NCBI GenBank assembly: GCA_051047955.1
Contig: JBPGPT010000024.1
Coordinates: forward strand, 62,001 to 126,000
DNA: 64,000 nt
From: Cystobasidiomycetes sp. EMM_F5
Taxonomy: Eukaryota
Reading direction: 5' to 3'
Numbering within the stretch: the first letter of the stretch is position 1; each line of letters opens with the position of its first letter. The notes under the pieces were generated by a model. That model did no database searches, was not told the DNA's origin, and saw nothing but the letters and a program-made list of their open reading frames with translations. The position numbers and the translations under genes are program-made. Below, piece by piece: positions 32,986 through 57,500 of this stretch.

Positions 32986-34614
32986 TCAACACGTATCAAA
33001 GAAGCTAGTGGCACTCGCTACGCAGCCGATTGTCCCAGCAAGACATGACGGAGCAGAGCAACCGAATTTGGTGCAGCATGTAGCTGCCTGGCCAAACCAA
33101 TCACTCGCAAGGCTGTAAGCTAGACATCCTATGTCCAGGCCCCATGCCCAGGGGTTTGAGGCTCCAAGGCCAAGTAGTACCGGGTCGATGATGCCTGCTT
33201 GGAAAGCTGCTTGCAAGGTACTTCCGGAGACTGGATCGGTTGTTTCGCCTGGATAACCTGCACATGCAGCTGGACCCACAACGCTCAAATGGCAGAAAAT
33301 GTCTGCTATGTTAAGAGTGGAAGTGATGAAGTTGTAGTTGTACAATTGAGTCCCCAAAAATTGCTGTACTGCCTCGTTTGTCACGATTGGGGAATTCTTG
33401 AAGGATTGCGAGACAGTATAGGTAAGACCAGCTTCGGCATAAATCGTTTTCGGAATATTTGGCAGGTATGCACTGATGAAAGAGGACCAGGTGCACATGC
33501 CCGATATGGCCAAGTCGAGTACTTTGAGCGTCACTGTTAGATAATCCACTCTGCAACTATCCAATTGCCTGGCATTTGCGCTCGGATGCAGTGGTGATGA
33601 CCATAAGTGTCGGTCGGATTTGGCTGTGAGTTCTGAATCCAAGTCGTGCTCCGCCTTCAGGTCTTCCAAAGCAACTCCGGCAAGACTCAGATAGTATTCC
33701 ATGTCGAATTGCCAGGCGGCGCGTCTCGCAGGCCCTCGCAATGTGCTCAGCCATCTTAGATCGCGTTCCTTGACGGTTCGGATAAAATGAATGGGAGTAA
33801 GCGAGTTGCTGGGATGGTCATCGTATGGCGCAGGTTTCATTTCGCTCCTACGTCGGGCGAGTCTGATTTGGGTCTGGCTGAGCTTGATGCCGAGGTACGG
33901 ATTAGCGTTCTTGAGGGCTACAATATGCATCAGTGATTCTGCCATCTCATAGCCGCCAGTCAACGCCATCTTCAAGAAATATGTGGCCTGCACGTATGGC
34001 TGGGATAGCGAACGGTTTGCAATGATGTACGAGACAGCATTATGGACACCCAAGACTTCGCTTCCCGGATCGGGAACAGTAGTAAAGTAGCTGGCAGCGT
34101 ACGCATAGGCTCCAGAGGGTATCCATGTCAGGCTATCGTTCCGTATTTGATCACGAATAGCTGTTGCGCTGGCGTTGGTATACGATACAAGCTGATCCAT
34201 CGCGTTGTCGCTGGCATTCCAAGCTTGCGTACAAGTGAGGTTTCCCATGCACGCAATGTACATCAACGAGGCGCTAGCTGTTGTTATGTTGGGTAACAAA
34301 GCTGTGAAATTCGTCCGACCGTAACCATAGAACGGCACGCGAGTGTACATATATGAGTAGACGGTGGGTAGAGCCGAATGATTTGCGATGCGGATAGTAT
34401 AGTTGTACGGGATCGCAGTCAAGGTTTTATCCGTGCAATTGGTATGTATTGCGGGGCCCCGAAGACAGCTAATGCCAGAAACAGCTTGCAACCACCACAC
34501 GTAAGTTCGAAGAATTGTCGACAGGAGGGCTACAGCCAAGGAATAAATATAAGTATCGTTACTGCTTAGAACGCTTGTAGTTTCCGCAGACTCACCGGTG
34601 CCATTAGTAGACAT
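32986..34614 (-). CDS. Orphan secreted, N-glycosylated, Cys-rich protein
   Basis: 556-codon open frame. Removing in-frame intron 34595-34530 (GTGAGT...CTGTAG) gives signal-peptide-like MSTNGTALLSTILRTYVWWLQAVSG. Ten N-X-S/T sequons in the N-half, an RLARRR site and 11 Cys in the C-terminal domain. Confidence 0.75.
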   Translation of the reverse strand: MSTNGTGESAETTSVLSSNDTYIYSLAVALLSTILRTYVWWLQAVSGISCLRGPAIHTNCTDKTLTAIPYNYTIRIANHSALPTVYSYMYTRVPFYGYGRTNFTALLPNITTASASLMYIACMGNLTCTQAWNASDNAMDQLVSYTNASATAIRDQIRNDSLTWIPSGAYAYAASYFTTVPDPGSEVLGVHNAVSYIIANRSLSQPYVQATYFLKMALTGGYEMAESLMHIVALKNANPYLGIKLSQTQIRLARRRSEMKPAPYDDHPSNSLTPIHFIRTVKERDLRWLSTLRGPARRAAWQFDMEYYLSLAGVALEDLKAEHDLDSELTAKSDRHLWSSPLHPSANARQLDSCRVDYLTVTLKVLDLAISGMCTWSSFISAYLPNIPKTIYAEAGLTYTVSQSFKNSPIVTNEAVQQFLGTQLYNYNFITSTLNIADIFCHLSVVGPAACAGYPGETTDPVSGSTLQAAFQAGIIDPVLLGLGASNPWAWGLDIGCLAYSLASDWFGQAATCCTKFGCSAPSCLAGTIGCVASATSFFDTC

Positions 34615-36285
34615 TCTGATCAGGATCCCAGAGACAATGTGGCGGGGAAAAAACAAAGCTCGTCTTACCCAGGAAAGCGAATCTGCTGGCAGTGCCCGAA
34701 GGTACTTAGTCCATTATAGCTGAGCGAACACATCAAAAGAAGCAGCTCAATCTTGGAGTTTGATTTACTTCAGCTTTGTACCTTGCTTATCCAGCTCTGG
34801 CTGAACCAGCTGTACGGGCTACCGATATTTATGTAAAGGTTGAAATAGTCTTGCAGCTGAATCCTCAGATACAAGTGCAGATGCTTTCGAGCAATCTGCT
34901 AGACGGACGTCGTGTTAAGCAGCGGTGCGGCGGGGAAGAAGCAACAGCTCTCCATGCAGGAAGAGAATGTACATTTCTCCGCCTGTGGTCTCGCCCCGTT
35001 ATATTTGGGCGTAGCCTATCGTGATACAGTGCTTTATCCGCATGGTATTGCGGCAGGCTGTTGAAACCTTCTATTCTACCCACCGTGCCGGAAGCAGATA
35101 CGCGGCGGGCTGAATTGATCACGTGTTGAGACTTTCCCCGTGGGGTGGGGTAGCCAACGCCCACCGCGTCGAGTCGTGGTCAGTCGCCAGCCAATGCCAA
35201 TGCAGGTGTCGCTGATTTAACGATGCGGTCAAGATCTCATAGTAGTGCCATAACTAGCGCTAGGGATATACTGCATTCAAGCACGGATGCGACATCTCGT
35301 TCCCACGAAATTGCGGATCGATGCCAGCGCGGAACTTGACCGACATGACGGGACTGTCGCGAGAGGGGCACTCCATAAGCATGACGGGTGTGATGCGCTC
35401 CAGGCGGAGATGTCTGATCCTAATGGTATTTGCCGGAAGTCTACCTGGCTAACCTACGACACTCTGCTCAGAGCTGGAGCGAAGCCAAAGGTCTTGAACG
35501 CGGCACAATCGTTGGCAGTCATGTTCCTATTCAAGACGCCCCGATTCTGGGTATGGCCCACTGTGGTTATCGTCGCAGTCACTACAAATCGGCCAGCTCA
35601 AGCTCGCCTTTTGCAGCGACGAGGTAGCGGACCATGCGCAGCCGTGCAATGTCCAGAAGTTCCTATAACTAGTGGATTTGCGTATGCGCCAACTTTCCTG
35701 GAGTGAGTTTGCCGGATTGCACTGCTTCGTAGGCATAGGTCGCTGATCGTGTAAGTAATATGGACGTCGTCAGTCAGTGTGGTGCAGGCAAGTACAGTGA
35801 CAATGTCCGCCAAGTCTTTGCGTGTTGACATGGTCGATTGACAGTCGGTAGCAACACATACTGCCACTGCAATGCTGGAGCCGTCTATGTGCACGAATGC
35901 CAGGTGTGTACTGCGGCCGCTCAACGTACGGAGCCTCCATTGTTGAGTGTGCTCTAAAATCACACCCCAGAACTGCCAGCAGAGGAGCAAAAGGCCAAAA
36001 ACTGTCTGTTGCGGAGATAATCCAGCGTCCGACCAGTACAAGGCGGACTGCGCGAGTCCGGCGTAGGGACTCCAATTCGGGGAAGCAACAGTATGGATCA
36101 GCAGTCATCATAGCAGCATCAGCAGTAATCAGTCATCGTTAGCGAGATCAGCCTGCATATTTTCGACGTGACTATATACTATAGCCCCATCTTGCCTCGC
36201 CAGCGACACTCAGCATGACGCATTAGCCGCACCAGCACCACACGCCCGTCAGCCTCGACACTCACACTCATTGACTACCGATGCC

Positions 36286-39200
36286 ATGGACACGCAGCCC
36301 TGGCTGGCCGAGCTGAGCGAGGAATGGGTCGACCAGGAAAACAACAACATCAGCAACAACAACAATAATGATGATGGGAGAGCTGCAGTACAACACGGCT
36401 CGGGCAAGTCAGTTATGGACTTTGGCAGCATCGTAGTGAGAGACCAGCCCCCGTTTGGTAGCGCTTCGCCGTCAGAGTCGTCGCAAATCGTCTACGGCAC
36501 AACCGTCGTCCGCGAGACTGACAATGGTCCAGATAGAAAGCAAGCCGCTCAAGCTGCGGGAAAGAGCCAGCTCGCCTGGGCCATATCCGCTATCGCTGGC
36601 AAGGGCGACCTGCTCGCAGAGTCTACGCCAAAGACGCCAAACCGCTTGCAGGCCTTGTTTATGGGAATTCAGACGCCGCCCAGTCCTGCGCCTCGCAAGA
36701 CTCCCTTGAATGCCAGTGTTACAGGCGAGTCCTCGTCTATTGATACCTTGGATGCAGCTGCGACTATCGCGCTGCCCGCGTCTCCGAGCGAGAGCACGTC
36801 TATTATCGAACGCAGAGACGACTCTAGTGAACCTTCCATACAGGCGTTTAGTCTATTGGCAGAGGGTGTCAATGGTCACGACGTACTGCAAGAGCCGACT
36901 GAGGGAGATCTAATCCTCTTCAGCCTAGCTCAAGATCAGCAGCCAAATCTACCAGAACTGTCAACAATACAAGAAGAACCCGAAACAGAGCGCGAAGACG
37001 ACGCATTGGTCCCCGATTTAAGAGCGGATCCTGAAGCGGAGCTAATCGAAAAAGGCAACGCCGCAGTAGAGCACTTGCAGGATTGTGAGTCGCCATCGCT
37101 CTCCAACCGCATGCGCTGACTGGTGTATACAGTAGACGCCCATTCAGACCATAATCGCCCAGCAGAACTTACACACACCATACAACCGCCCACCAGCGAC
37201 TTTTCATTCCATATCGAAAAGACGAAGCGACAGTCGTGGAGAGCGCATCTCCCACCACCGACTCCACCTCCGGCGCTCGACACTGACGCACTTCGCACTT
37301 CTACCCCAACAGGAGTTGCTGTTCGCACAGCATTAACAGCGTCTCAAGCAGCTCCTGCTGCGTTTGCACGCACTCCCTCCCGACTCGCAGCTGCTGTTTC
37401 TATGGCTGCCTCGACAACGGTTCCAGACACTGGTAAACAAGCATCTCCTGCTCTTGGAATCTTCAAATTTCACCACGATACCCCAACTCGAAGGCATTTG
37501 GAAGCATTGGTGCATGAGATTGATGCTCTGCAGAGTCCACCGCAGTCTGTCGACTCTTCGCGGATCGACAAGCAGAAGGATGCCGTATGGCTCGAACATT
37601 TGCAGGAACTGCGGGCATCACGGACTTCTGCAGATCTTCATCGTTCAGCCCCCGGCATTCGATATGCACTGCATCAGAATACTTTTCTCCATCACCAGTA
37701 CGCTGACGAGAATGACGACGTGTACATGGATGAAGATGGCCGCTTATCGAGTACGCGAAGCGCGAAAAGAGTACGGCTGAGCATGAGCGCTGCCTATCCT
37801 CCTTCACCACGGGATGCCATTCTACAGAATACAAACACTCGAGCTACGCCTTACTTGCATAAACGGCCATATCGACTTGCTCAATCTGCGCGGAGGCCGT
37901 TGGCCGCCTCAGCTACGCCTGCATTTGTTCCGAGGACGACCACTCCCCTTCGTCCACCGCTTCGATCACTCCCATCTATGACGATGCCTTTCAACCGCCA
38001 TCTCCGCTCGTCTGCTGCCAATGTGCCGCAGCTAGCCACTCCGCACTATAATCCGCCTTCAAGATATAGCACAACGTCTCCTGCTGTCTCCCTGACTCTG
38101 GCAGAGACGCCACAACCCGAACGTCAGTCTAACAGGAACGAGTCGACTCTGCAGTACGATACAACTCTGCCAGTCACTCCGCAAGCTCCCGTCCCTGTCT
38201 CACCGGCCGTGACGGCTATACGAAATCGAGTCGAAGATGCTCGAGCATTGATGGACCGCATTCGAATAAGACAGGCTTCTGCTGCTCAAACATCAGGCCG
38301 CGTATTGGCGGAGCAGGCGGGGCCGAATCCGCCTGTTCGATTCTCGAATCCCGCTCCTGCTGCGGCTTCGTTATCCCCTGATGAGCCAGGCGACTCTCGT
38401 TCTACCTCTGCTGCTCTACGCACGCCGTTGATCGTCGCGCCAGCTGAAAGTACTATCGTTGTCCCTCAAGCGCATGGCAGAAGGGCTCCAGTAATGAGCG
38501 CTGCTCTGCCGAAAGGTCCGAGTAGCTTATCGCTTCCTCAGCAACCTCAAAGGCCATCCTCATCGTCATATGCATCTTCAAGTCGCTTCCATGCTTCTAC
38601 GAGTACGAGAATCACCTCCGGCTCCACTGCGGCTACCAGTGTCGTCATGCAAGCCCAAAGTGCTGAAGAGCAACGCCAGACACTCGTTTCCGGCATGGTG
38701 CAAATTACTCCCGATGTCGCTAAAGGTATGCTCACCCGAGATATGCTTGGTGATATGGATTATGACGATGTACACAATCGTTGGAAGAGACTGGCACCTC
38801 AGCCTGCTGGTGCTGTCACGCAACCATACCTCAGCGTAATCCCTGAGATCAGTCCGATGCTCGGTGACCATAGTGATGATGATCCATTCAGGGATATCTC
38901 CAGCATGGAACGCAGCAAGACGCAGAGCGCCATCATCGCTCCGATGCAGCTGCAGAGTATCAATACCATACCTAAGCAGGTGGCTGATCGCAGTGCTGCA
39001 CCGACGGAAAAGACGTCAACGCCTCCGCTGACAGCTTCAGCTGGCCCTCCGCTTGTTTCACCTGATCTTCCGATAATTGCACAAACACGAAAGTCGAGCG
39101 ACAACAGCGCACTAGACTCCGATAATGTACAGCCGTCAGCGCCGCCTCCTCCGCGCTCGGCCCTTAAACGCGTAGACAGCTTCTGCACTCCGCTCGTCAG

Positions 39201-41479
39201 CTCGCGTATAGTCCCGGCTGATCGCACTAAGCTAGGACGGAGTGTTAGCTTTTCCGATGGGCGCAAAACTGGCAAGATCGCGCCACCAATGGAGAGGTTC
39301 AAGACAGCTCCTCCTGCCAGCGCTTTACGATACGAAGTCCACGACATGGCACAAAGCACGGACGACTCTGAGCGAGAAGATGCATCGGGTATAGAAGCGG
39401 ATGACGATGGAGGGCACGAGAGTACGAATCCGCTCAATCCGTCTGGTTTACCGATAACATTTACTCTTCTCAAATCTCGTGCGGTGACTTCACCAAATTG
39501 TACTGGCCAAGCGACGCTGCGCTGTCCGCCCAATACAGACTATGCTGATGAGACTTCAAGTGAACAAAGTACACCGACTGGCGTGATGCATCTGCAAGGT
39601 CGCTCGCGGTCGATGCGTTTACGCTTGCGACAGCAGTCAGCTACGTCTTTCGCCAACTCTACGCTTGCATGGCACCGTCAGCCACTTCCAGCGAATGCTA
39701 CAATCTTGACAGAGTGCTCCTTTGCAGTCTCGCATGATCGATTGGTGCAAATCCTGACGGATGTCATGCCATTTGAGCCAGATTGGCAGAACATGACGCG
39801 TATCGACCTTAGCGGCAAAGGCGTAGACTCTGTAGTACGCCTAAAGGAGTTCCTGCCAAAATTGGACGATGCCATCTTGTAAGTCACTACAGCAAACGTT
39901 GAGCCTTCGCCCGTTGATTTTCCGCTTGCAGATCAAATAATGGACTCACCTACGTGACAGGCATATCTAGTTCTGTCCGCTCACTTGATGTGGCGCAGAA
40001 CAAGCTCAGCAACCTGACTTCCTTTGGACACCTACTTCATCTCGAGAGCTTGAATGTGTCAAACAACCCAGATCTGTCCGAAGTGCATCAGCTCTCATGC
40101 CTGCGCCATTTACGCATCTTTAAGGCTGACCATTGCGCAATCGGCGAGATTCAAGGCTTGCATGAGCTGGATGGCCTGATCCATGTCAGCCTACGTGGTA
40201 ATGCCTTACAAAGTATACATCTGGCACACACCAGCTGGCGACGAGTGGAAAGTCTGGACTTGGCGGAAAATCATTTGATTGAGGTTGCTGGCTTGTCAAG
40301 CCTGAACAGCCTCAAGGCTATTGACCTTGGTGCATTGAGGCACTACAAATTCGAGGAGTCTTAATACTGAGAATGTCGTCTCGTCAGATAATAATCGATT
40401 GACGACGCTAGAGATGGAGTCGGAAGCTGCACAACTTCGCATACTGCGAGTCTCGAGCAACAAGCTGACCAAGCTGGATTTATGCAACATGCCTCATCTT
40501 CGAACAGTCAGTCTACAGACGACTATCACATTTTCCACTTCTGACGAACAGTCCAGGTTTACGCGGATGATAACCGAATCAAAGAAGTTAAGGGAACGAG
40601 CGGGCTTCGGCACCTTGAGAATGTCAGTCTCAGAGATCAGAGACACTGTAAAATGTGGGAACATTCCAACGACATGCCTCCCTGTCAAGACTGATGTATC
40701 ACTTCCGACATAGAAGCCTAAATTGGCACGACCTCCGCGACATTCGTCGTCTGTACCTTAGCAGTAAGTGGTGACTAGGTTAGATGTCTTGATCAGGCTT
40801 ACTGACAATAATTCATTGCAGACAACACACTGCCTTCGATTTTCCCATCCGAGCAATTCCACAATCTGGTTCTGCTCGAACTTGCTGGATGTAGACTTAC
40901 TTCTCTACATCCGGATTTTGCGGCCCTTGCGCCAAATTGTCGAGTTTGTAAGCATGTCAGCACGTCACCGTGGTTAAGCATGCATTGATACTCGAAATAG
41001 TAAATCTCGATAACAACTTCATTCAAGACCTGACGCCCCTGGCTGGCATGTCGCGCTTGAAACGTCTGTCTGTACAAGGAGCACGACTGGAGCGTCTTAA
41101 ACCCCTGTTGGCATCGCTTGCGGAACTGAAAGAACTGGAGATGCTGGATGTCCGGTAAGTTTAGTTTCTGACTGCGAATACCGTGGCTGGCTGACACTTT
41201 ACTAGGATGAATCCATTGACATTGGGATTTTATCCTTTGCCGACCGCTGCCTCAACTGCTGTCTTGGAGACTGCGGTGTCGCCCACATATGCTGTCGAAG
41301 ACAAGCGATTCCGGTCTTCTCTTCCCAACGAATGGTTGGCGAAACGTAGTGCATATCGAGCGTTGGTGCTCGTGACGGGACCTTCGTTGAAGCTACTGGA
41401 TGGACTAAAAGTGGGCCAACGGCATCGAGAGCGAGCGCAGGAGCTGCTTGATTCGTATGCCAGTGCTACTACTATATGA
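36286..41479 (+). CDS. NUD1: Septation/mitotic-exit network scaffold, Nud1/Cdc11-like LRR protein
   Basis: N-terminal QPWLAELSEEW; intron 37085-37132 removes the stop between ORFs; LVQILTDVMPFEPDW, LKEFLPKL, tandem LRRs, DVR|MNPLTLGFYP, YRALV...LLDGL. Confidence 0.82.
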
Positions 41480-41572: not shown

Positions 41573-43601
41573 ATGCCTCGCGCAGTCCGTCTCGACCTGG
41601 CTGCCCCGCTGCAGTCTGAGGTCGTTGATATTCTACCATCACCACCGCCAGCGTACTCTGCGCTTCCCATCGATGACCGCTTCGAGGACGCCGACGAGAC
41701 TGACGACAGTGACGCTGATGGTGAAGAATTTTTAGTGAACGGCGAAGAGGACCTCGACGATTTGAGCGACGACGACGACGAGGACGGCGACGACGACTAT
41801 GGCATCGACGACAATCTCGTCGGTGACCAGGATTGGGAGAATGCTGCGGGAGATTTGACAAAACGATACAACAGGCTACGGCAGCACGTTGGCGCACTGA
41901 CCGGAGAGCAGAGCAGGTCTGCCCCAGCTAGCGGAATAGCTTCAAATGCAGGCTCGACGTCCTCTGCGATGCCGCTGCCAGCGCAGAATCAGCATCGAAT
42001 ACGTTCAAGTGCTGCCACTTCAGCTGCAAATTCCGGTACTCCAAACAACGCTTCCACAACGAGCAACGGCGCACCCACAGGCGTACACACCAGCAAGCTC
42101 GAGTCGTCTCTTGCTGCTCTGTCAAACAAATACTCTGCCGCACTCAACCTCGGCATGGTCGGCTCGTCCGAAGCTTCTACGTCTGCACTGCCGTACGGCG
42201 CACAACCATCATTCACAAGCAACGCCGCAACACGCAAAGGCGGCAGTGAGAGGCTGAACATAGTCAAAGACAAGAGCGACCGAGCGACGACAGAGCAGGT
42301 GCTAGACCCGCGGACTAGACTGATTCTCTTCAAGATGCTAGGCCGAGGTTTACTCGAAAAGGTTGAAGGCTGCGTCAGTACAGGCAAAGAGGTATGTAGT
42401 CGCAACGTACCGCTGTTCGAATGCGCTTAAATTGATGTCACAACAGGCCAATGTGTACCACGCTCTAGGCAGAATTTCACCAGATGCAGAACCGCCATCG
42501 CTTCTAGTACATCTGGCTCTCAAAATCTACAAGACGTCCATTCTGACTTTCAAGTCTCGTTCAAAGTATCTGACTGGGGAGTTTCGCTTCAAGAATGGCT
42601 ACTCCAAAGTCAAGAATCCGCGAAAGATGATTCGGCTGTGGGCAGAGAAGGAGATGCGCAATCTCAAGCGAATGCACACTGCGGGCTTGCGGTGTCCCGA
42701 GCCAGTCGAAGTGCGAAACAACGTTCTCGTAATGACGTTCCTTGGCCTTCACGACGACAGCTGGGAGGCCTGTCCTAGATTGAAGGACGCAGATCTGCCT
42801 GCCGAAAGACTGGAAGAATTGTACATCGAGATGCTGTGGATCGTCCGACGGCTCTATAAGGTCTGCAGGCTTGTGCATGCCGATCTCAGCGAGTACAACG
42901 TCCTCTACAACCCCCTCGACGAGCACTTGTACACTATTGACGTGTCGCAATCTGTCGAGCACGACCATCCCCACGCTTTCGACTTTTTGAGGAGCGATAT
43001 TGCAAACATGGATGAATTCTTTGCACGTCGTGGTGTCAGGACGCTCGGTATCATGCGTACTTTTGGCATGATTATCGAGACGTGGGGCATGGATGGCGAG
43101 GAAAGCGAGTTACAAATCAGGACGGAGGTGGAACGACGCTTTTCGTTGCCGGAAGCTACAGCCGATGCGAATGGACTGGGAGATCAAGTCGAGCAGGACA
43201 AGGTCTTTATGCAATCGTATATTCCCCGCACGCTAAACGAGGTCTACGATCCTGAGCGGGATGTTCAGCGTATTGCACAGGGAGAGCAAGATCAGCTCAT
43301 CTACTCTGAAGTAGTCGGTGTGGTTGCGCCCAAGGCGATCAAGGTGGATGAAGATGTGGACGAGCAAGAAGACTTTGCGAGTGAAAGTGGTACCGAGGAT
43401 GAGAGTGGAGATGGAGATGACGGCGCCGAGGGCGAGGCTGGCGTCAAGCAGTCTAGGGGCAAGCGGCACGAGGACAGGGACGCCAAGAGGGAGCGCAAGC
43501 AGGCTGTCAAGGAGGAAAAGCGCGAAAAGCGCAAAGACAAGATTCCAAAGAGTGTCAAGAAGGCGGCAGTCAAGAAGCACAGCGGAAAGAACAGAAAGTA
43601 G
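41573..43601 (+). CDS. RIO1: RIO1 atypical Ser/Thr kinase (40S maturation)
   Basis: [73 protein letters not shown], basic C-tail. Confidence 0.96.
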
Positions 43602-43720: not shown

Positions 43721-44958
43721 ATGGCAGCAGCGACGACGCGAAGCCAGCCGCTGGTCTGTCGCGGGCACACGCGGCCGCTGACGTGCCTGTCGTTCTCTGG
43801 GCTCGAGGCTGACGGCGAGCACTATTTGCTGATATCTGGCTGCAAGGATGGGACCCCGATGGCGAGTGGGATGGGGATGTGATGCTGGCCAGCTCGAATA
43901 GTATCGGCTGACTTGGCCGTTTGCAGCTGCGGGACGGGGCAACTGGTGTGTTGTCAATGACGATGCAGAGATATCAACATGTTTTAATTGATTGACTGAC
44001 TATCCCCAGGCGACTGGCTCGGCAGCTTCCTAGGACACAGAGGGAGCGCCTGGTCTGCCAAATTGTCCGCAAACACCCAGCGAGCCATCAGCGGTTCAGC
44101 CGACTTTAGCGCAAAAATATGGGACGCGACAGACGGGAGCTGCTTGTTGACCCTCCCGCACGAGCACATCGTTCGCTGTGTGGATCTCAACACCGACGGC
44201 TCAAAAGCAGTCACCGGCGGTCACGAAAAGAAACTACGATTGTGGGACGTGGCTCAACTACTCGCTGCACAGCAAGATCAGCAGGGCAAGGGAGGTCAGA
44301 CGGAGCAAGCGGTTTCTGCAGACAGTATCACGCTGGCGTGCAGCTACTTCATTGCAGATGCGTCTAAAAGCACTGCGCACGAGGGGAATATCAAGTTCGT
44401 GATATGGGATGAACCGAATGGGCAAGTGGTGTCTGCTGGCGACGATAAGACTGTCAAGTTCTGGAGCTTGATGAGCATGAAGTGCGAACACGTTCTCCAT
44501 GTCGATGCTCCCATTACCAGTATGGAACGCTGTCACGACCAAGCCGGGTCCATCAGCCTGACGCATGGCGATACGGTTGCCTTCATCGATGCTCGAGCGT
44601 GAGTCAATACTACGGACGTCATATGCCCATTCCACTAATCTTCACCTCCCATTCCAGTCGCGAAATCAGACTGTCGTACACCTTACCTTACCCCGTCTCG
44701 ACAGCTTCGTTGCATCCCATCTCGCACGATCGTTTCGTGACAGGATCCAGTGCTGACGGCTGGGTACGCGTTCATGACGCAAAGACTGGCGCCGAGCGGG
44801 AAATGTACAAAGGTCATCATGGTCCAGTTCACGCAATCTCCTATTCCCCAGACGGCGAGCTGTACGCTAGCGGGTCAGAAGACGGAACGATCAGGCTGTG
44901 GCAGACGACGCCAAAGACGTATGGGCTGTGGGTGGCGGGCGCAACGACGGGCAATTGA
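43721..44958 (+). CDS. WD40 protein, STRAP/UNRIP-like
   Basis: PLVCRGHTRP, LISGCKDGTPM|LRDGATG|DWLGSFLGHRG, SGSADFSAKIWD, KGHHGPVH.ISYSPDGELYASGSEDGTIRLW, YGLW. Confidence 0.92.
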
Positions 44959-45322: not shown

Positions 45323-47329
45323 TCATATCCGTTGTGAACGCCTTCCGTGCTCATTCTCATCCTCTTGCCAATAAGAATCAGCGCCGTCATCCTCGGCATC
45401 AGCGGCGAAGACTGCTTGCCGACCATGATGACCGTTCGGTAATGCTGATCCATTTCCTCTCCGCTGATCCATCTCTACGTTTTCTTCATTGGCCAGGCCA
45501 GCACTTTCCGGTAGTCGGCCATACAAGACGCTTTCTTTTGGCTCTGCGTTTCCATTGAGGCCGTCCCGCGAGGTTGAGCCAGACACCAAGCGTCGCCAGA
45601 AAGACGGTGTATCACTCAAAGACGCAGGGGGTGCGTTCTTCCCGCTTGTATGATACACGGAAATGAGGACATTGGCCCACAGATAGATTACGAATGAAAT
45701 GCAGAAAAGAATGATGATATACGTGACGTGCTGTGAATAAAGAGAGGTGCTAATGAGCCTGGTCATCCTGCTGATGAGTATGGCATCACTCACATCCATG
45801 CCGATGCCAGCGACGACTGCAATTTCCTCTTCGGTGGCAGACATGAACTGCAGCCTAATCCACAGGGCATAATCCGATCAGCTTAGTGGTTTGCGAAAAT
45901 GGCTGCATACTGCACCCACCCGCCAGCGACCAACAAGAACGGTGTCGTGTGCTGAAAGGCGGCGATATCCTTCGGCTTAGCGGTGCCAGGACCAGATGAG
46001 ATATTCACCGGATCCACGACTGCCTCATTCCTATTGTTGTCGACCGGGTCAACTGGAGGATTGTGCGTCTCCTTCAGTACGAAGCAGATTTCGATGATCC
46101 GGCATAGACCGGCGAGCATGAGGGTATACCCAAAGATGGTGTGCACATGTGTCGACAACATTGTGGCCTGTTCGTGTCCCGACATGGCAAAGCCTGTGAG
46201 GGCAATCACAAGAGCTGGCCAGATGTTGCGCTGAGAATGAAGGCGAGCAGTCAGTAAGGTAAGTCTTGTGTCATAGTACGCTGTATTTCAGCATTACCTT
46301 GCGATTCCGACCCAAATACATTCCGAGGGCACCGCCTGTCCAGAAGAGAACACCAAGAGAGGTGTGCTAGTCGTGTGCAGAGATTAGTCGCATCTTTGCG
46401 GCATCCGGATCTGGTCTACCCACCTGCATGTCTTTGTGAGACCAGCCGGAGGAAGTCTCGAGGAAGTTGTGTTCGGTAAATGTGTTGATGATGCCCCAGG
46501 TCATGCTTGAGGCAGGCAAGTAGGTCAGTCTGTTGCCTACTGTATGCATATAATTTCAAACACACATGACGGTGCTATCCAAGAATTCCTGCGATATACC
46601 CCGCTTTTCAAGCCACGGCGCTCCATGCATACTCATGATGAGAATGATGATGCCATAGCCCATGAAGGACGAGCCCATGATGTGGTGAGCCAGACACTGG
46701 CCGAGATTGCCACCAGCGCAGTAGCCGAGCGCGACAATGACGCCGAGCAGCATCTGGACATATCCAATGACTGGATACAGCCTGCCTAGTATACCGTGTA
46801 CGGCTAGAACTATCTTTCGAGCCTTCTTGCCTTCATGGATGTGCAGCTTCAGATAGACACCCAGTCCAGCTTGCGCCAGTATAATCCAGAACAACCATTC
46901 TGCAAAACTGCCGTGCTTTGAATGGGAAAATGCTCGCCCACCGTGAGCGTGGCCCAGCCATACTCCGCCAAGCGTCAGCACCGTAGCTGCGTATCGAAGA
47001 GGCCTTGTCAATGACGCCGTAGTGTATGCAAAATCCGACTGACAAGTCAACTGGACTGGCACATGCCAGCGCGACCTCGTCAAGCCAAAGACCATGCCCA
47101 GAGGAAATGCAAAGCCCCAGACCAAGACTTGAACGTAAATGTGGAGCCATAGTATCGAATCAATGGGCTTGAGGGCATTCTCCGGACTGGCAGCCGCTTC
47201 GTCGTGGTGCTCGTGGGCAGTGACGGCCGCAGCATGCAGCGCTAGCAGGCACAATACCCTCGGTAGTAATCTTGATGGTCGCTGCTTGTTGCCCGGTGCC
47301 GGATTTGCTGATGCCAGGTCTAGTACCAT
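45323..47329 (-). CDS. YTP1: Ytp1-like integral membrane protein
   Basis: AHEHHDE, IDSILWLHI, RSRWHVP, LGHAHGGR.F, GQCLAHHIMGS, QEFLDS, WGIINTFTEH, TGFAMSGHEQ, FMSATEE. Confidence 0.88.
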
Positions 47330-47714
47330 GCTGAGTAGTTTTCAGTCACGAAAGTCACTTGGAGATGTATATGCTGCTTGTGGGAGACACCAGAGCAACC
47401 TCTGCAGGGATTGCTCTGGATGTCCGCCCCAGCTTGCCGTGCTGGGCGTTGCGGGGGTGAATGTTGGCCACACAGTAGAATAGTAGTTGGGCCGCCCATA
47501 TACACGTAGCTTGGTTGGGGGTTCGGAATATACAACGCAGCAATTCTGCCAACAAACGGGCACATCTACAACAATCTTGTACACGATAAGTTGCGCGTAG
47601 AGATTGCTGTTGCTGCTGGTCCGGCTTGGGCATTTGCTTGTTGCTGAACTGTTTGGTCTGATGTACAACTTGACCTTTTGCCATTAAGTGTAGGAAAACG
47701 GCATCATTACATTG

Positions 47715-49569
47715 ATGGTCTTCAAGTGTCGCCTCGTCGTTGACAACCCGTCCACGCCCTTCTGGCTTGAGCATGTGGATTGCTACCGCTGGTTTGGTCA
47801 GCGCGTTAACAATCCAGCCGCCGTCACCCCCGGTCAGAGGGATGGCACTGCGGGCGTCTTTCAGAGCTCGGGCTATGCCATGTTTGGCACGTCTGGCGTC
47901 GTCACGTACAAAGTGACTGGCAAAGATTGCTGGCTCGCTTTGCTGTGGCATGTGGGGCCAACCGCCAACCGAGCTTGTATCGACCTGTTTGAGGAACGAC
48001 CAGTCGCCGGGCGTGGGCTAGCTACAAGACTCTTTCAGCTCAACACAAAGCAAGCTCGCATGCCACTGTCTCTCAACGGTGCTGATGTGACGTTGAAGGT
48101 TGGTTGTATTTCACGCTCGACATGTCGTCGCGCGCTGAGTGGCGGTCTTACGTCGCTCGCAGGTTTACGCGAAAGTCGGCTCGACAAACGACGTCGAGGC
48201 TCGATGGACTCTGGCGCTTGAAACTGCTTCGCCGGTCCAATTGCAGTCGGATCCCCCGCCTTTTTTTCACACGAGGGACCTACTCTTGCCTATACCTGTG
48301 CCGCGCACGCGCGTCTTCACTTCTGTTCGCTTCATTCCAGTCGGTCATGACGTTTCAGCTGACAAACACATGGGCGCGATGGCAGCGGGATTTCAGGTGC
48401 GCGCCTTCGCTGCTGTATGCCTCAATTTAGGTCTCTATATTGATTGGATTGGTGAAGGCGACTCACACTGGCGGCAAAGAGGACCCAAATGCCATCGTCA
48501 GCCCCCTTTTCCTGTGTCTTACACAGCTTCCAGCCCCCTATATAGATGCAGGGTCAATCGTCCCCGGTTTTTTTGGTGAATCAACGCGAAACAATGCCGT
48601 GATCACCTGGGCTGGAAAACAAGAAAACCTGTCCGATTTTTGGTATCTTTGCGATCCCAGAAATGAATTGGAGTGGCTGCCAAAGGATGAGGCGGTCAGG
48701 GCTGGCTCTGAGCTTTTTCTCGCCGGATACGACTCGCACATCAGAAAGAAAACTGTATTCATACGTGCTCCTTTGGCAGAGAACGGAAGATGGATCACTG
48801 GCAAAGCAGACGAAGATGTCCTTTCCCACGGACGTGGCTTTTTGCCCATTTTCACGCAGGATCTGTCTCACAGCAATGCTTGGGTGCCAGGTACTTCGAT
48901 TCCCGGCAATGCACGATGTATCGCTGACGCTTTCGACAGTCGAAGGTCTCTATACTTACAATTTTAGCGTGTTGTGCTGGCGATCCTTCGAAGATATCGC
49001 TGCACCAATTCCGGACGACGACCAAATTGGTCTCCACAATAGATTCGCTCAACAGTCGCAGGACGCCTTGGGAGTCCACGGAAAGATTGGTACCGCAGAG
49101 AAGGCCGTAATGGTCGCGCTCGCAGCGCTCGAGCGTATGGCTCTGCTCGCCGGTCAAACCCCTAAGATCTTACCCTTAGGTGTCGAAAGATTGCGTGAAT
49201 TGCCTCCGTCTGCGATGCTGTCATCTTTCCTGACTCTTGAGAGCAGGAACCTCCGGCAACAGATACGTTGACGTTGCAAAAACCATTTTTACGGGAACGA
49301 CAGGTACTAACACGCAATATCTCGTGGCCCTTAGGGACGCCATGAATTATCTTCTGGCGGAACTCAGCCGCAGATTCGGCCATACTTTCCGTACTCACCC
49401 AGAGATTAGTGGCAAGTTGCGGGACTTGAGCGACTTGATCGCGCGAGTCTTGACAGAGAGGGCATCTGTGATGGGTCTACATGGAGGCGGAGATGCGGCG
49501 CACCGACATGTATACGACGTATGGAAGAGGCTTTCGGGTGTACTCGTCTTATCCATCTGCTTCTTTTGA
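47715..49569 (+). CDS. Multi-domain protein: actinoporin-like N-domain, two DM9-like repeats and helical C-domain (3' end uncertain, may reach ~49730)
   Basis: Exons joined through introns 48099-48162, ~48397-48457, ~48891-48939 and ~49195-49246. Domain resemblance judged by eye (see findings). Confidence 0.65.
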
Positions 49570-49713
49570 CACAATGCGCGCAGTCAGCAATCCTTTTGCC
49601 GTATATGAAGTGGTTTAGAGATGTGAGAAACACCGATCCTTTCTGTTGTATTAGCATATCCTGGCCGGACAGTGTATCGTGTACCGAATCACATTTTCGT
49701 GTATTAGCCGAGA

Positions 49714-50834
49714 CTACTGACTTGATATAAATCTCGATCTACGAGTCATTGATATAACACGCTCTAGACTGGACCGGTACACCGCATTATTCGCCTTTGC
49801 ATACCAATCACACATGACCTGAACGACGTGGTCAATCTCGCCGACTTCCTCCTCGTCGGTCCAGTCTATGGCTGGAAACATCTGGGCTAGAGCTTTTCTG
49901 TCTTGAGGAAAAGCTTGCTTTTTGAATACTGTTTCGCTGTTGACGATGTTCCAACCCAGCATCATTGCAGCGACGGCTAGTACTGGAGCGGAGAAGCTGA
50001 TGCAGATGGGGTGTGTATACCTTGAAGTATTACAGTAAACATCAGTACAAGGCAGGAACAGACACGGTAAAGGAATATAGATAACTCACATCTCGTTCAG
50101 GACTTGCCATGACTCTTTTGCGAGTATCATTCTTTGACTTTCTTCTGGCAGCGTGGCAGCGAGTGCAGGATGCTTGATTGCCGCCATGAGCGGCTTGAAA
50201 GGATGAACGACCGTCATGTCGAATTGTAGTGCTACAAGTATCAGCTCTTCTATGTACAGGACTTGCTGCACCAGCTTTCGGAATGCCTGATAATGAGGAT
50301 TGTATTCAGCCTGTAGATCGCCGACTTCGATGACAACGATCCTCACCGGATCAGATGGATGTATCTTTGGCTCCTTGCCTCGTCTCCTGTCTTCCAGACG
50401 CAGACAGTAATTCACAACCGCTTCAACCTTGCGAAGCGATTCCTCGACCTTGCCAGCGAGAAACAGACACGCCATTGCGACCTCGCGATGGCCGTACTTT
50501 GCGAGCGAGTGCATCATGTAGAAGCGGTGCAGAAAGATGGAAGCGGTGGAGACGGTCAGTAGCGGCCTACAGTCACGATATTCGAACCACACCGTCTTCA
50601 GCTCCGCCCCATCAGTGATAGAAGGCGACCAGCTCACACGCTGACACGGACGCTGCCTACGCGGACGATGAGATCCACGCCCTGCGCCCGCTCGTACAGC
50701 TCTCGCTCGAGCGATATGCCATCAGCCCTCGACGGCGTTGCGCCAAAGTCTTCTGGCCAGTCAAATATCCAGTCATTGGGCGAATTGTTGCCGTTCTGCT
50801 TGGGTGCAGCTGCAGCTGCAGCAGTGGAAGTCAT
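49714..50834 (-). CDS. Transcriptional cyclin (cyclin T/K, Pch1/Bur2-like)
   Basis: TPSRADGISLERELYERAQG, TASIFLHRFYM, ACLFLAGKVEE, EELILVALQFDMTVVHP. Confidence 0.9.
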
Positions 50835-52355: not shown

Positions 52356-54235
52356 ATGCGGACGGGATATCTGGTTTCTCTGACTCTGCCGTTGCTCTCG
52401 CTCAGCGGGAGTGCCCAAGCTGGCCTATTCGACCGCCTCAAGGGCTCCGCTTCTTCGATATCGTCTTCAGTCGCCGACGCCGTTCCATCGCCCGCTGGAG
52501 CAGCTGCGCCTTCACCGCCGGCTGAGCCATCGTTGGATGCTTTCGGCGGTAGTGGTGTCCAACCTACGCAGGCTGGATCAGGCAAAGGGAGAGCTGCAGC
52601 CCCAGCTCAGCCGGGACAGATTATTTACGAGCGGGTGCCAGGCGAACCAGATCCAAAGGTTGTCAATCAGGTCGAGACGGCGGTGCCAACGCAGGAAGCT
52701 CACGAGCCATACGATGGAACAGAGTACAGGTGGAAGATGTTTGCAGTGAGTTGCGAGTTTGGACGGTGTTCGGACGAGCTTTTGGACGTGGAAGGCTGGT
52801 CGATATTCGGATGGATCTTTTCGACCTCGCTACAGTGACATGGGCTGATGCGGCTACATACCATTTTTATGCACTGCACGTACTATCACTCGCAGTTTCG
52901 TCCTGCCCAATTCTTCTACGAAGGACTCAGCTTGTGAGCCTCGATTGTACAGCACAAAGCATTCTTGGCTGATGTAGCAAGCAGAGCGGCGATATTAACC
53001 TATCTTGCAATCACACTCCTGGGAAAGCGTGCGAACCAAGCACAAGCGACCGCTTGGTGGAAAGCGCACGTCGGGTTACTCAACGAGGTAGGTCAAGGAT
53101 GGGCTGCAATTCTCCGCGATTTAACTCCGGCTCATCTTTCTTTGTCCTCCAACAGAACTTTGCCTCATTCTTACGTAGCCCTGCCTCTGCCTCCTTACAA
53201 CGCTCCGATCCAACTACATACTATGGCTTTGCCTCAGGTCGCCGCGGTACTTCCGGCCTTGTCGCCCAGATTACAACCTTGCCTCGACACGACATTATCG
53301 CACTTGCCTTTACTCTAGGCTACAAGATCTATGATCTTTCCTGGTCGCCAGACTCTGGCAAGGTGAATCTTGAATTTGAACTCGAGCATCCTACCGAAGG
53401 TGGGAAACTGCCAGCTGGCAAGGAAGACATAATTTGGGCGATTGTCAGACGACACGCTCTCATGCAAGTCCGTGAAGCCCGCTGGGATTTGGCTAGTTTC
53501 GGTCAGCCGGTCGAACCAAAGGAGTTGTCGGTTCTCCCGAACAAACAAGGAGAGCAGTTTGTCATCCTGTCGGAGAATGGTCAGGTTACGGAACTGTTCC
53601 TACGAAACTCGAAAGGACCTTCTGGTATTCTAGAGCTTCTCGGTAGCCAAGAGCCGGCAGCGAAGAAGGCAGTCAAATGGCTGGAATCCATAGCTATCAG
53701 CGATATTGTCGCAAAAAGACCGGATGAACCGTATGTCTTGCTAATTCTGTTTACTGCGCAGGCTGTACTAACTTCTACCCCATACATACAGAGTCTTGGA
53801 GAAGGCTGGCAAGATTCCACAGAGTCGTCGCCTAACGATGACCATGACTCTTCCCCCTGCATCACACGCTGCAGAAACACTGCCATTGGTCGAGCTGGCT
53901 CTCAATATCGTCGACGTGCTCAATGGCAGCACCCTGTCTAGCGACGTTGTCGCAAAGGGGGTGAGCGGACTTTTAATCTGATTTGTCATGACTTTCGACT
54001 GATTTTCTGCAATTTTTCCTCCCAGCGAAAGCGCCGCACAGAAGTATACAACCTACTATTGTCCGAGTCTCGTAAAGAGGCCAATGATAAAAAGATTGCC
54101 GAAGCTCGTGCAATCAAAAAGCGGGCGGATGAAGAGAAGAGGGAAAAGATGACCCCGCAAGAACGTCGCAAGTTGGAGGCCAAGGAGAGGGATAAGGAGA
54201 TGAAGAAGATGGCGATGAAGCAGCAAAAGAAATGA
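52356..54235 (+). CDS. DUF1682 / CCDC47-like ER membrane protein
   Basis: Signal peptide; YRWK.F.|FRPAQFFYE, TM segment, GKRAN, YYGFASGRRG, PRHD, WAIVR, RWDL, ILSE, K/E-rich C-terminus (MTPQERRKLE). Confidence 0.85.
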
Positions 54236-54533: not shown

Positions 54534-57500
54534 ATGGCTTCAGCTTCGGGCGGTTCAAACTCAAGACCGCCAGCCAACGATGGCAACAGAACGCCCTTGA
54601 TACCGTTGGAGTATTGTGATGCGCCTAATCAGCGGTTCTATGCCGTAAGTCGTGCTCGGAAAGCGATTTATCATCAGAAAGATTGTCAAGCAATGAAGCA
54701 ACATCAATCAAATTACTCGTCAAGATGACATACGGACGCTGACTCGAACATCTTCTAGGTCTCACTCTTTGCCCTCCAACAATCTTACAAGCTGTTCCAA
54801 TTCGCCGAATCATACTTGCCCTCGCCGAGTCCTGCTTCAGTTTCGCGACCGTGGCTTTTGTTCAAATGGGCAATCCTGGATGCATTCACCATCATCTTGC
54901 TGTTGCCGCTTTTGCGAATACCACGTTTCAGCTGGAATGGATCCGCTAGGACTCTCCTCGTCCTCACTTTATGCCTAAGCAATTGGATACTTGTCGGCAA
55001 CTGGAGGACGTCAGGTCTGCTCGGTCTAGCTGGCGTGGTCATACCATCAAACATTAAGGGTTTGTAAGGTCCTTGAGCACGTCGCGGGATTTTCTGACGC
55101 TCTCCTCGCTACAGGCTACTTCCACTCCGATCTGGCCATACTGGAGCATAAAGTTCGCCTCGGCAAGCTGGTTGATCCTGCCACGCACATACTGGGCTCT
55201 TTCACCATCCATATATTACCGCACAGTACGGCACGCTTTCTGCACTTCGAGAATCAGTTGCAAACGCCTTGCGTAGCCGTACAAGGTCTCGAGTCCGGTC
55301 TATATAGCCATCCCGCTTTGAATACGCAGCGCCAAATAGCCATACCCGTCCTTCTCAATAATACTCAACCCAAATACTTACAATACAGCATCGCCGCGCT
55401 CGGTGGTTCTATCGATGAAGAAGGGAATGACGGAAGAGCATACTACAATCTGTCAGCCAAAGATCTCACGCTTATCTCGACTGGTGCATACCGCTCTCTT
55501 CTCAACATTAGAGGTCGTGATCCGTTGCTGGCTCTCACGAATTCCGATGCCAATGACGAGGGCTTCGACGACGATATCAGCGAGGAGCGCGACTTTGCAC
55601 CGTCGAGTGGGACCTTAGCGCAACGCCTTATCGGCTATGATGGTACGCAGGACACCGATGCCTTGTCCGCGAAAATAGGACACTCGACAAACCAAATGCG
55701 CGAGCTTGCACATAGTCTGCGCCATTTCAATTTACAACCCACGCAGTCCATCTGGGCGTTCTATGCAGACAAGCCAGGTATCATACGACTCGAGCGCGTC
55801 ATCGACAAGTCCGACAATGATGTCAGGGTACCGAATCCGAGAGTCGACAATATTGCTACTCGAGACGCGGCATCATCAAACAGCCCCGCAAACAAGATAG
55901 TGATCGTTCCCTGCCCGCAAGCTGCCTTCGTTACGGATGCGCATCGCGGCAAACGCTCGGACTCGGAGAACGACATTACGGCTTGTCAAGCGGATACTAC
56001 CAGTCAGGAAGCGGCGGTCGGCCAACTACCAACCACGCATTCGTTCACAGTGGAGATCTATGGATACCCACCTTTACGGTTGCAATATCATCGCTTGGTA
56101 GGCCCATCTGCAACGGCTAGTAGCAGACACAACGCACAGCGAGAATCAGCTACCATAGATGGCATTGCACCAGAAGGGGCTTTGCTGATGTCGCAACCGC
56201 ACGATGCTAAGGCCAAAATAAGCCTCAACAAGCGTACACCCGGTAATGGCGACAGTCTTGAGCAGAAGCAGATCGCGCTTGTCCCGCTGAATCAGCAATC
56301 ATTATCCAACATACACGCCCCCGAAAAGGTGCATGCGTCTATTGAAGTGTCTTCTTCACTCGCCGGCGACCACTCGTACCAACTGGATAAAATAACGGAT
56401 GCCACGGGAAACAGCTTTGATTTCTCTTCCCTGCATGAGCAGTACGAGACAGCTGAAGCTAGAACGCAAAAACGCAAAGCATCGGTCCGATCAATGCTGC
56501 AAGATGCTTCTGTTCGCCATGCGCGTATTATACCTCGATCGCAAATCTCGTTTGTGGGCTGCGGGACTAGCTCGGGAGCTGGGAGCGGTCAGCCCGTAAA
56601 GCTGTTAGAAGGAGGAAAGGCGAACCTGCATCTCAGAATCAGCACGCAAAACGGTGGTCCAGGCGGTCAGAACAGTGCAGGCAGTGATAGTCCATATACT
56701 GTCTCGGTATCCCACGAGAAGGACAGTGATCCATTGTCAGAGACATCGACCCCAACCCAAGAGCAGAAGACCTTTAATCTCAAACTGACACGTGCGTCCG
56801 AGTCCATTTCGATTAACAAGCCTGGCCGGTATCGTATAAGTGGGTTTAGAGGAGATCGTTGCGATGGGCAAGTGCTTGAGCCGAGCGAGGTGTGTGCAAG
56901 TCAGCGCATCAGTACGACGTCTTTACTGACGGCGTGCCTCTAAGTGTATTGTGTACACCCCTCCTCTACCGACCGTTGATCTATCGCTTGATCCCATCAC
57001 TGATGCTTGTGCAGGCGAAGTTGGATTGCGCGCCATGTTCTCACTATCAGGAGAACCGCCATACAGAGTCCACTACACCGTATTGAACGGTGCAAATGGC
57101 AAGCCGCAGAAGCGTACGAAAACAATCAAGCTGAGTCGCGACGAGCTGGAGCTAAGACCTGATCAAACTGGCGAATTTGTCTACGAGGTCAGCGATTTTC
57201 GGATCTGTGGACGCGAACAAGACTGAGTTTGCATCCAAAGTTCGTTTCTCTCGACGACGGGAATTATCAAGGTATACCTATAGGTCGCAGCATTCGGCAA
57301 TCCGTTCATCCTTTGGCAAGTGCACGCTTTTTGCGAGCTGGAACAGAGCAAAAAGTGTGGTCCTGTGAGGGCGAGCGGGTATCCGTGCCGATCGAATTAA
57401 GCGGTATCTCGCCTTGGACGGTGCACTATAAGATAGTCGGCCAGAAGAATGTTCACACGGTCGAAGGTGTGCAGGACGCCAAAACAAATCTCGACGTTGC

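Follow-up and report, generated by a model that had tools for sequence, protein, structure and literature searches.

A nearly orphan spliced gene of Cystobasidiomycetes sp. EMM_F5 predicted to encode a cytosolic protein with an actinoporin-like sandwich and DM9-like repeats

Does a single gene of Cystobasidiomycetes sp. EMM_F5 join a sandwich of the actinoporin type to DM9-like repeats, and if so, what kind of protein would it encode? The locus in question lies on the + strand of a 64,000-nucleotide stretch of contig JBPGPT010000024.1 (assembly GCA_051047955.1, positions 62,001 to 126,000), which is the window analyzed here and to which all coordinates refer. A first-pass annotation had read the region 47715..49569 as a fusion of an actinoporin-like domain with two DM9 repeats and had suggested that the product may be a cytosolic, glycan-targeted membrane-attack or defence protein. 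In the reading that we favor, with a probability of roughly 0.5, the product is a cytosolic chimeric lectin-like or lipid-binding protein, with binding, ligands, and a biological role that we infer. The exon structure and the open frames are read directly from the DNA, and one relative was found.

On the + strand, 47715-49271 contains four open frames that are joined by three short GT..AG introns into a protein of 460 amino acids (aa). Exon 1 (47715..48098) carries the start codon and residues 1-128 of an N-terminal beta-rich domain and is followed by intron 1 (48099..48162; 64 nt, GTTGGT...CAG). Exon 2 (48163..48396) encodes the last strand or strands of that domain (aa 129-~149), a proline-rich linker, and the start of the first repeat (aa 183, ~48325). 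Intron 2 (48397..48457; 61 nt, GTGCGC...AAG) precedes exon 3 (48458..48890), which holds the bulk of DM9-like repeat 1, up to 48667, and, from 48668 on, the bulk of repeat 2. Intron 3 (48891..48939; 49 nt, GTACTT...CTGAC...CAG) has a branch-like CTGAC, read from the sequence, 11 nt upstream of its acceptor, and exon 4 (48940..49271) encodes the end of repeat 2 (to 48980) and a helical tail with the amphipathic stretch AVMVALAALERMALLAG, terminating at TGA 49269-49271. With an alternative acceptor at 48430, intron 2 would measure 34 nt, less than the other three introns of this locus (49-64 nt). The position of the start is clear, because an in-frame stop (47691-47693) precedes ATG 47715, the first ATG downstream of it, and because the only relative, P0002 (see below), starts at the same aligned methionine (Met). 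The peptides that the first-pass annotation had quoted were recovered from this model: CRLVVDNPS, WLEHVDCYRWFG, PAAVTPG, GYAMFGTSGVVTYKV, LALLWHV, and NRACIDLF all occur in the exon 1 translation, the junction peptide LKV/YAKVGSTNDVEARWTL spans intron 1 in the spliced translation, both repeat patterns are present at aa 183-276 and aa 277-364, and AVMVALAALERMALLAG is located in the tail.

The evidence supports 47715-49271 as one spliced gene predicted to yield one polypeptide, a conclusion that we hold with considerable confidence. Coding potential was scored as codon-usage log-odds, trained on twelve long open reading frames (ORFs) from the same window, which themselves scored 0.04-0.22. The proposed frame had the highest of the six-frame scores in all five putative exons (0.052, 0.164, 0.071, 0.151, and 0.054, respectively; the fifth is discussed below). 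A shuffle control gave z values of 2.9-4.0 but was lenient, since shuffling creates stops, and the six-frame comparison was relied on instead. Exon 2 is a single stop-free frame that runs from the putative last strand of the N-terminal domain via the proline-rich linker into the first repeat. The linker (48223-48369), which would be intergenic if there were two genes, scored highest in the exon-2 frame (0.127 versus -0.016 and -0.323, with -0.24 to -0.28 on the other strand). Over its whole frame, exon 3 contains no Met/ATG and therefore cannot begin a gene. Read-through of intron 1 leads to a stop at 48219-48221, and that frame scored -0.267 over the exon-2 region, compared with 0.164 for the spliced frame.

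The union of exons 1 and 2 was also consistent with structure prediction. When ESMFold2 folded the exon-1 product together with the opening 35 aa of exon 2, the median interaction prediction score from aligned errors (ipSAE) was 0.66, and the best control reached 0.02; of 78 solved complexes, 51 attained the mark applied to this score, as did 2 of 108 mismatched pairs. Exon-2 residues 8-21 (48184-48225) were placed against strand 1, exon-1 residues 4-11, with the runs agreeing on at least 69% of contacts. The predicted local distance difference test (pLDDT) score was 72-83 for the exon-1 chain and at least 48 for the exon-2 partner, whose own fold was flagged as uncertain. The two chains are halves of one predicted domain, and the pass, which fits the splice model, may partly reflect likeness to solved sandwiches.

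The 3′ end of the gene allows two products. The span up to 49569 held in part: the four exons to 49271 stand, whereas the remaining stretch hinges on a fourth intron with a weak donor, and the frame otherwise terminates at TGA 49269-49271. With that intron, a possible exon 5 (49335..49569, +; uncertain) would add 77 more helical-looking residues, and the product could be ~517-521 aa instead of 460 aa. The intron is favored by a canonical branch site (TACTAAC, 49305-49311) and by an acceptor at 49334 (TTAG), but the sole frame-compatible GT donors are weak (GTCTGC 49208 and GTCATC 49220), and the codon score of exon 5 was the best of six frames by a small difference (0.054 versus 0.041). Because of the weak donors and the marginal score, exon 5 is treated as possible and not as established.

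Judged from sequence searches, the gene appears to be close to an orphan. When 1.84 billion representative proteins were searched with exon 1 by phmmer, two matches came up, P0001 and P0002. P0001 is a 705-aa tandem-repeat protein matched seven times over query residues 15-47 and was rejected as an artefact. P0002, which matched with E 3.3e-5 and 34% identity over 96 residues, is a 125-aa partial protein on a 1088-nt contig in a metagenome-assembled genome of the lichen-forming fungus Candelina submexicana; since it ends at the end of exon 1, it says nothing on what follows the N-terminal domain. In the reverse direction, P0002 matched 47715-47987 of the window by tblastn with 54 bits and 34% identity (E 4e-12 with threshold 11 or word size 2). 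Default tblastn seeding missed this match, and scans that were confirmed by tblastn may thus overlook relatives at such a distance. Word-indexed searches for longer proteins gave 215 candidates with the exon 1 query, none at E ≤ 0.001, and 209 candidates with the exon 3 query, likewise without a match. A search with profile A1 among proteins of near lengths returned P0002 alone. Scanning of metagenomes yielded 97 pattern matches for A1 and 174 for exon 3; tblastn confirmed none of them, and these are weak blanks given the default seeding. No paralogue was found in the window, where the next best tblastn match had E 0.33.

The fold and search runs used exon pieces, each of which is short of the outer strands of its module. 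With this scope, the N-terminal domain (~145 aa) appears to resemble most the group of actinoporins, aegerolysins, fruit-body lectins, and Nakanori, minus the pore helix; this assignment is supported but not proven. It had been proposed by eye from the order of motifs, which appears to match that of actinoporins. In an ESM Atlas feature search with exon 1, the rank 1 cluster carried PF06369 Anemone_cytotox (score 0.94, 215 of 256 features shared), a family present on 49% of the members of that cluster. Among the clusters shown, the three with Anemone_cytotox held ranks 1, 2, and 8, and 9 of the 30 matches fell in that set. The other neighbors carried PF06355 Aegerolysin (0.93), PF07367 FB_lectin (0.93), and PF21230 Nakanori (0.87), and the ten best family-bearing matches all belonged to the same family or clan as the best one. 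An AlphaFold2 model built from a two-sequence alignment of exon 1 and P0002 was all-beta with nine strands.

Actinoporins form pores by inserting an N-terminal amphipathic helix of ~30 aa. This helix is absent here, because an in-frame stop precedes ATG 47715, P0002 starts at the same Met, and the protein begins with strand 1; residues 3-10 formed a beta-strand in the AlphaFold2 model and paired with the C-terminal strand in the co-fold. The upstream stop, this strand, and the start of P0002 bear out the first-pass annotation on this point. Actinoporins bind sphingomyelin through an aromatic cluster and a phosphocholine site; that the aromatic patch is lacking here is a by-eye reading in the first-pass annotation.

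The second module is likely to be DM9-like, though very divergent, and it is not a demonstrated member of the family. DM9 families have two or more tandem repeats of 60-75 aa, and the oyster lectin CGL1 has an N-type lectin fold with pseudo-twofold symmetry. The mannose-binding residues of CGL1 are not alignable here; by eye, no more than a Lys within a GK motif and a single Glu seem to be conserved. The units measure 94 and 88 aa and fit the DM9 pattern by eye. In a Pfam search of exon 3 at E ≤ 10, DM9 (PF11901) was the single family found (E 0.0052, 17.2 bits), with exon 3 residues 31-78 (48548-48691) matching profile positions 15-62 of 115. For 77 residues that straddle the repeat junction (48530-48760), the values were E 0.0023 and 18.3 bits. 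The match runs from the latter half of repeat 1 into the beginning of repeat 2, on the motifs that had been picked by eye in the first reading. When MAFFT was applied to the two repeats, it lined up F, AP, G, G, and E positions. Divergence between repeats is not exceptional in this family, since the halves of CGL1 are just 30% identical to each other according to the excerpted text of PMC4932603, which also describes mannose binding by CGL1 via Asp22, Lys43, and Glu59 and via Lys114 and Glu130.

The tail (residues 365-460) had no Pfam, NCBIfam, or significant PDB match. The best PDB sequence match for exon 4, zuotin, was not significant (E 0.29) and was set aside, and the 77 residues of exon 5, if real, matched nothing in Pfam or NCBIfam. 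The hydrophobic stretch of the tail (aa 406-424) contains Glu and Arg, and its Kyte-Doolittle mean over 19 residues, 1.35, is the maximum of the protein. No 19-residue window reached the usual transmembrane level, and no transmembrane segment was found. No signal peptide was apparent in the hydropathy scan, as had been stated before, and residues 1-16 lie within the folded sandwich in the co-fold. Exons 1, 2, 4, and 5 had no aerolysin, ETX_MTX2, or other Pfam match at E ≤ 10, and Pfam found no pore domain (aerolysin, MACPF, or other) in any exon.

A number of results weigh against the two fold assignments and the fused architecture. At E ≤ 10, no Pfam family, Anemone_cytotox included, was found for exon 1, the read-through ORF, or P0002, and NCBIfam matched none of six pieces. 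PDB sequence searches with exon 1 alone or with profile A1 gave no match, including no actinoporin. The ESM recognition value of exon 1, 2267, is just under the 2300 mark of the tool, below which a high score is weak evidence, and one third of shuffled proteins also reach ten of ten matches in one clan. The AlphaFold2 model of exon 1 had a pLDDT of 51, too poor to confirm a fold. With this model as query, Foldseek found no PDB structure at E ≤ 0.001 and returned generic beta-sandwiches; the actinoporins Fav and equinatoxin II appeared at E 0.15-0.38 and template modeling (TM) scores of 0.21-0.26, among unrelated sandwiches. For the repeats, the DM9 score of 17-18 bits is below the Pfam cut-off of 26.2, neither repeat 1 nor repeat 2 by itself had a Pfam match, and the local alignment score between the two repeats, 24, was close to the shuffle mean of 23.7 and was reached by 227 of 500 shuffles. 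Exon 3 on its own gave an AlphaFold2 pLDDT of 36, too poor for a fold search, and PDB sequence searches with exon 3 and with the two-repeat profile A2 found nothing significant. Its best ESM Atlas clusters, phage Gp5_OB (0.85), came with a low recognition value of 1713 and were rejected as uninformative. No ortholog of the same architecture was found in the longer-protein, profile, and metagenome searches, and a look-up of RNA data over 47500-49800 likewise turned up none.

Of the tests that the first-pass annotation had proposed, the Pfam search for Anemone_cytotox and the AlphaFold and Foldseek run on exon 1 failed to return a significant actinoporin match, and the Pfam search for DM9/DUF3421 found the family (E 0.0052 and 0.0023) but below its cut-off. 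The actinoporin-like nature of the N-terminal domain stands insofar as its ESM neighbors are the named family and its clan, but the sequence searches gave no match and the model is of low confidence. For the repeats, DM9 is the sole Pfam family, but the two units are not significantly alike.

These results allow two readings that depart from the favored one at an early step. The gene may be real and single with one or both fold assignments wrong, encoding a lineage-restricted, beta-rich orphan unrelated to actinoporin-type sandwiches and DM9. This would explain why all curated thresholds fail, why the structural searches are generic, why the repeats are not significantly alike, and why the ESM features of exon 3 are uninformative. 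However, two independent methods reached both families that had been named beforehand from the motif order, and with 24,736 Pfam models and 7.7 million Atlas clusters searched, such agreement is improbable as a coincidence; we regard this reading as unlikely. The gene model itself would be wrong if the N-terminal domain were a stand-alone gene of ~168 aa with intron 1 retained and a downstream gene started from Met 48370 or 48379, or if the locus were an untranscribed relic. No ortholog with the fused architecture was found by the searches for longer proteins with exons 1 and 3, P0002 is just 125 aa and ends where exon 1 ends, and the donor sites are non-consensus (GTTGGT, GTGCGC, and GTACTT). 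On the other hand, the end of P0002 is uninformative, as this protein is flagged partial and lies on a 1088-nt contig, every exon is stop-free, and exon 3 lacks a Met of its own. Moreover, the exon-2 frame is the best-coding one for the would-be intergenic segment 48223-48369, the score of -0.267 speaks against the read-through frame, and the exon-2 strand docks on exon 1 with an ipSAE of 0.66 versus 0.02, which makes a wrong gene model quite unlikely. The open exon-2 frame, the codon score of the linker, and the co-fold leave the single fused gene of the first-pass annotation as the best reading.

When the predicted protein is compared with known systems, the closest counterparts of its first module are the aegerolysins (PlyA and OlyA), Nakanori, and the fruit-body lectins (XCL, ABL, and SRL type). 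They share with it a beta-sandwich of ~140-150 aa without signal peptide or pore helix, and their Pfam families are carried by the ESM-feature neighbors of the N-terminal domain. In the excerpts of PMC8067419 and PMC10890737, they are described as fungal, cytoplasmic, and recognizing lipid or glycan. The protein differs from them in having no sequence or Pfam match to any, and whereas they are single-domain or HET-fused (het-B type), here an N-terminal sandwich precedes DM9-like repeats and a helical tail. Compared with the sea-anemone actinoporins (equinatoxin II, sticholysin, and Fav; PF06369), the likeness is the top ESM-feature cluster; the differences are the missing N-terminal amphipathic helix, the missing Pfam match, and Foldseek E values of 0.15-0.38 on a low-confidence model. 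Actinoporins are, moreover, secreted toxins, whereas the protein here has no signal peptide.

The second module is comparable to the DM9 lectins (oyster CGL1/CgDM9CP-1) and the fungal DUF3421/DM9 proteins in its two tandem units of ~90 aa and its sub-threshold PF11901 match, and the halves of CGL1 are likewise divergent (PMC4932603, excerpts). The DM9 proteins of Agaricomycetes, as far as the excerpts of PMC10282164 go, carry CBM5/12 and not a cytolysin-type sandwich. DM9 proteins act as lectins for mannose, and in natterins they make up the N-terminal part (PMC4932603 and PMC8402412, excerpts). With natterins, which combine two DM9 repeats with an aerolysin domain, the protein would share a design in which DM9 repeats are coupled to a module drawn from a superfamily of pore formers (PMC8402412, excerpts), but the order is reversed, with DM9 second, there is no aerolysin or ETX_MTX2 domain, and the partner module is without a pore-forming element. 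The parts themselves have fungal precedents in defence lectins, lipid-raft binders, and FB-lectin-fold recognition domains (PMC8067419 and PMC10890737, excerpts), and FB-lectin-fold domains are found within multidomain intracellular fungal proteins such as het-B (PMC10890737, excerpts).

In the favored reading, the spliced gene would thus encode a cytosolic protein of three parts: an N-terminal beta-sandwich, a proline-rich linker with two DM9-like repeats, and a helical tail. The sandwich may bind a membrane lipid or a glycan, like the helix-less members of the actinoporin-fold group, and the DM9-like unit may bind a sugar such as mannose. The whole would be a two-headed binding protein, or chimerolectin, that recognizes or aggregates its target and makes no pores. 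Pore formation is unsupported, because the pore helix is missing and because there is no aerolysin-type or other pore domain.

The suggestion of membrane attack was accordingly the weakest part of the first-pass annotation, with no actinoporin pore helix, no pore domain in any exon, and no transmembrane segment. In its fuller form, it holds that the protein is a glycan-targeted, natterin-like pore former, in which DM9 aims and the sandwich, perhaps together with amphipathic C-terminal helices, breaches the membrane. The clan neighbors of the N-terminal domain do include true pore formers, aa 406-424 form an amphipathic hydrophobic stretch with the top Kyte-Doolittle window (1.35), and natterins offer a precedent for DM9 combined with a pore domain (PMC8402412, excerpts). 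Against this, the protein begins with strand 1 in place of a pore helix, the co-fold buries this strand against the C-terminal one, aerolysin, MACPF, and other pore domains are absent from every exon, no transmembrane segment is predicted, and the tail matches no known family. Furthermore, PlyA, an actinoporin-like sandwich in which the N-terminal region is likewise missing, cannot form pores by itself, and Nakanori is non-lytic (PMC8067419, excerpts). We therefore consider membrane attack very unlikely. A variant that would assign the attack to the tail is a long shot. It envisages a "reverse natterin" family of (lichen-related) ascomycetes, in which a cytoplasmic, helix-less lipid sensor of the actinoporin fold and a DM9 sugar sensor are combined with a new C-terminal amphipathic helical effector, and the tail permeabilizes a foreign or damaged membrane once both heads are engaged. 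If true, it would represent a new way in which known recognition parts are assembled into a protein for targeted membrane attack or cell death.

The gene lies in a normal fungal chromosomal context with housekeeping neighbors. Upstream, a divergent gene for a Ytp1-like membrane protein (46556-47341, -; Pfam DUF2427 E 6.7e-21, Ytp1 E 9e-12) shares with it a divergent promoter region of ~370 bp (47342-47714). The convergent downstream neighbor encodes a cyclin (49717-50721, -; Cyclin_N E 1.9e-8), with the frame stop at 49714. If exon 5 is real, ~145 bp lie between its end and the coding end of the cyclin gene, and the 3′ untranslated regions would overlap. Farther away on the + strand are genes for a RIO1 kinase (42342-43601), a WD40 protein (44000-44602), CCDC47 (52973-53941), and the nucleoporin POM152 (55030-56943). 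Nothing among the neighbors suggested a toxin or secondary-metabolite cluster, a partner MACPF gene, or a mobile element. Antisense to exon 1, a stop-free frame of 220 codons was observed (47355-48017, -); the best codon score on the minus strand was -0.013, compared with 0.052 for the sense strand, and the frame looks like a shadow of the sense gene. Two long open frames elsewhere in the window, 37120-39882 (+, 920 aa) and 32986-34713 (-, 575 aa), had no Pfam family at E ≤ 0.001 and may be further lineage-specific genes.

A full-text literature search, with supplements and subscription journals outside its coverage, found no description of a fusion of actinoporin and DM9. Where the two were mentioned together, in the excerpts of PMC10282164, DM9/DUF3421 occurred solely in mushroom CBM5/12 proteins. 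If both fold assignments hold, the gene would represent an undescribed combination of known modules in a nearly orphan family. It illustrates how far modules can diverge: with one relative in 1.84 billion representatives, such a family is invisible to ordinary annotation. Fungal cytoplasmic lectins and binders of the actinoporin fold serve in defence against grazers and in self/non-self recognition, and they have also been developed into tools, for example bioinsecticides or probes of lipid rafts. A protein that carries two recognition heads of different kinds could be considered for a role in defence or recognition, or for use as a tool.

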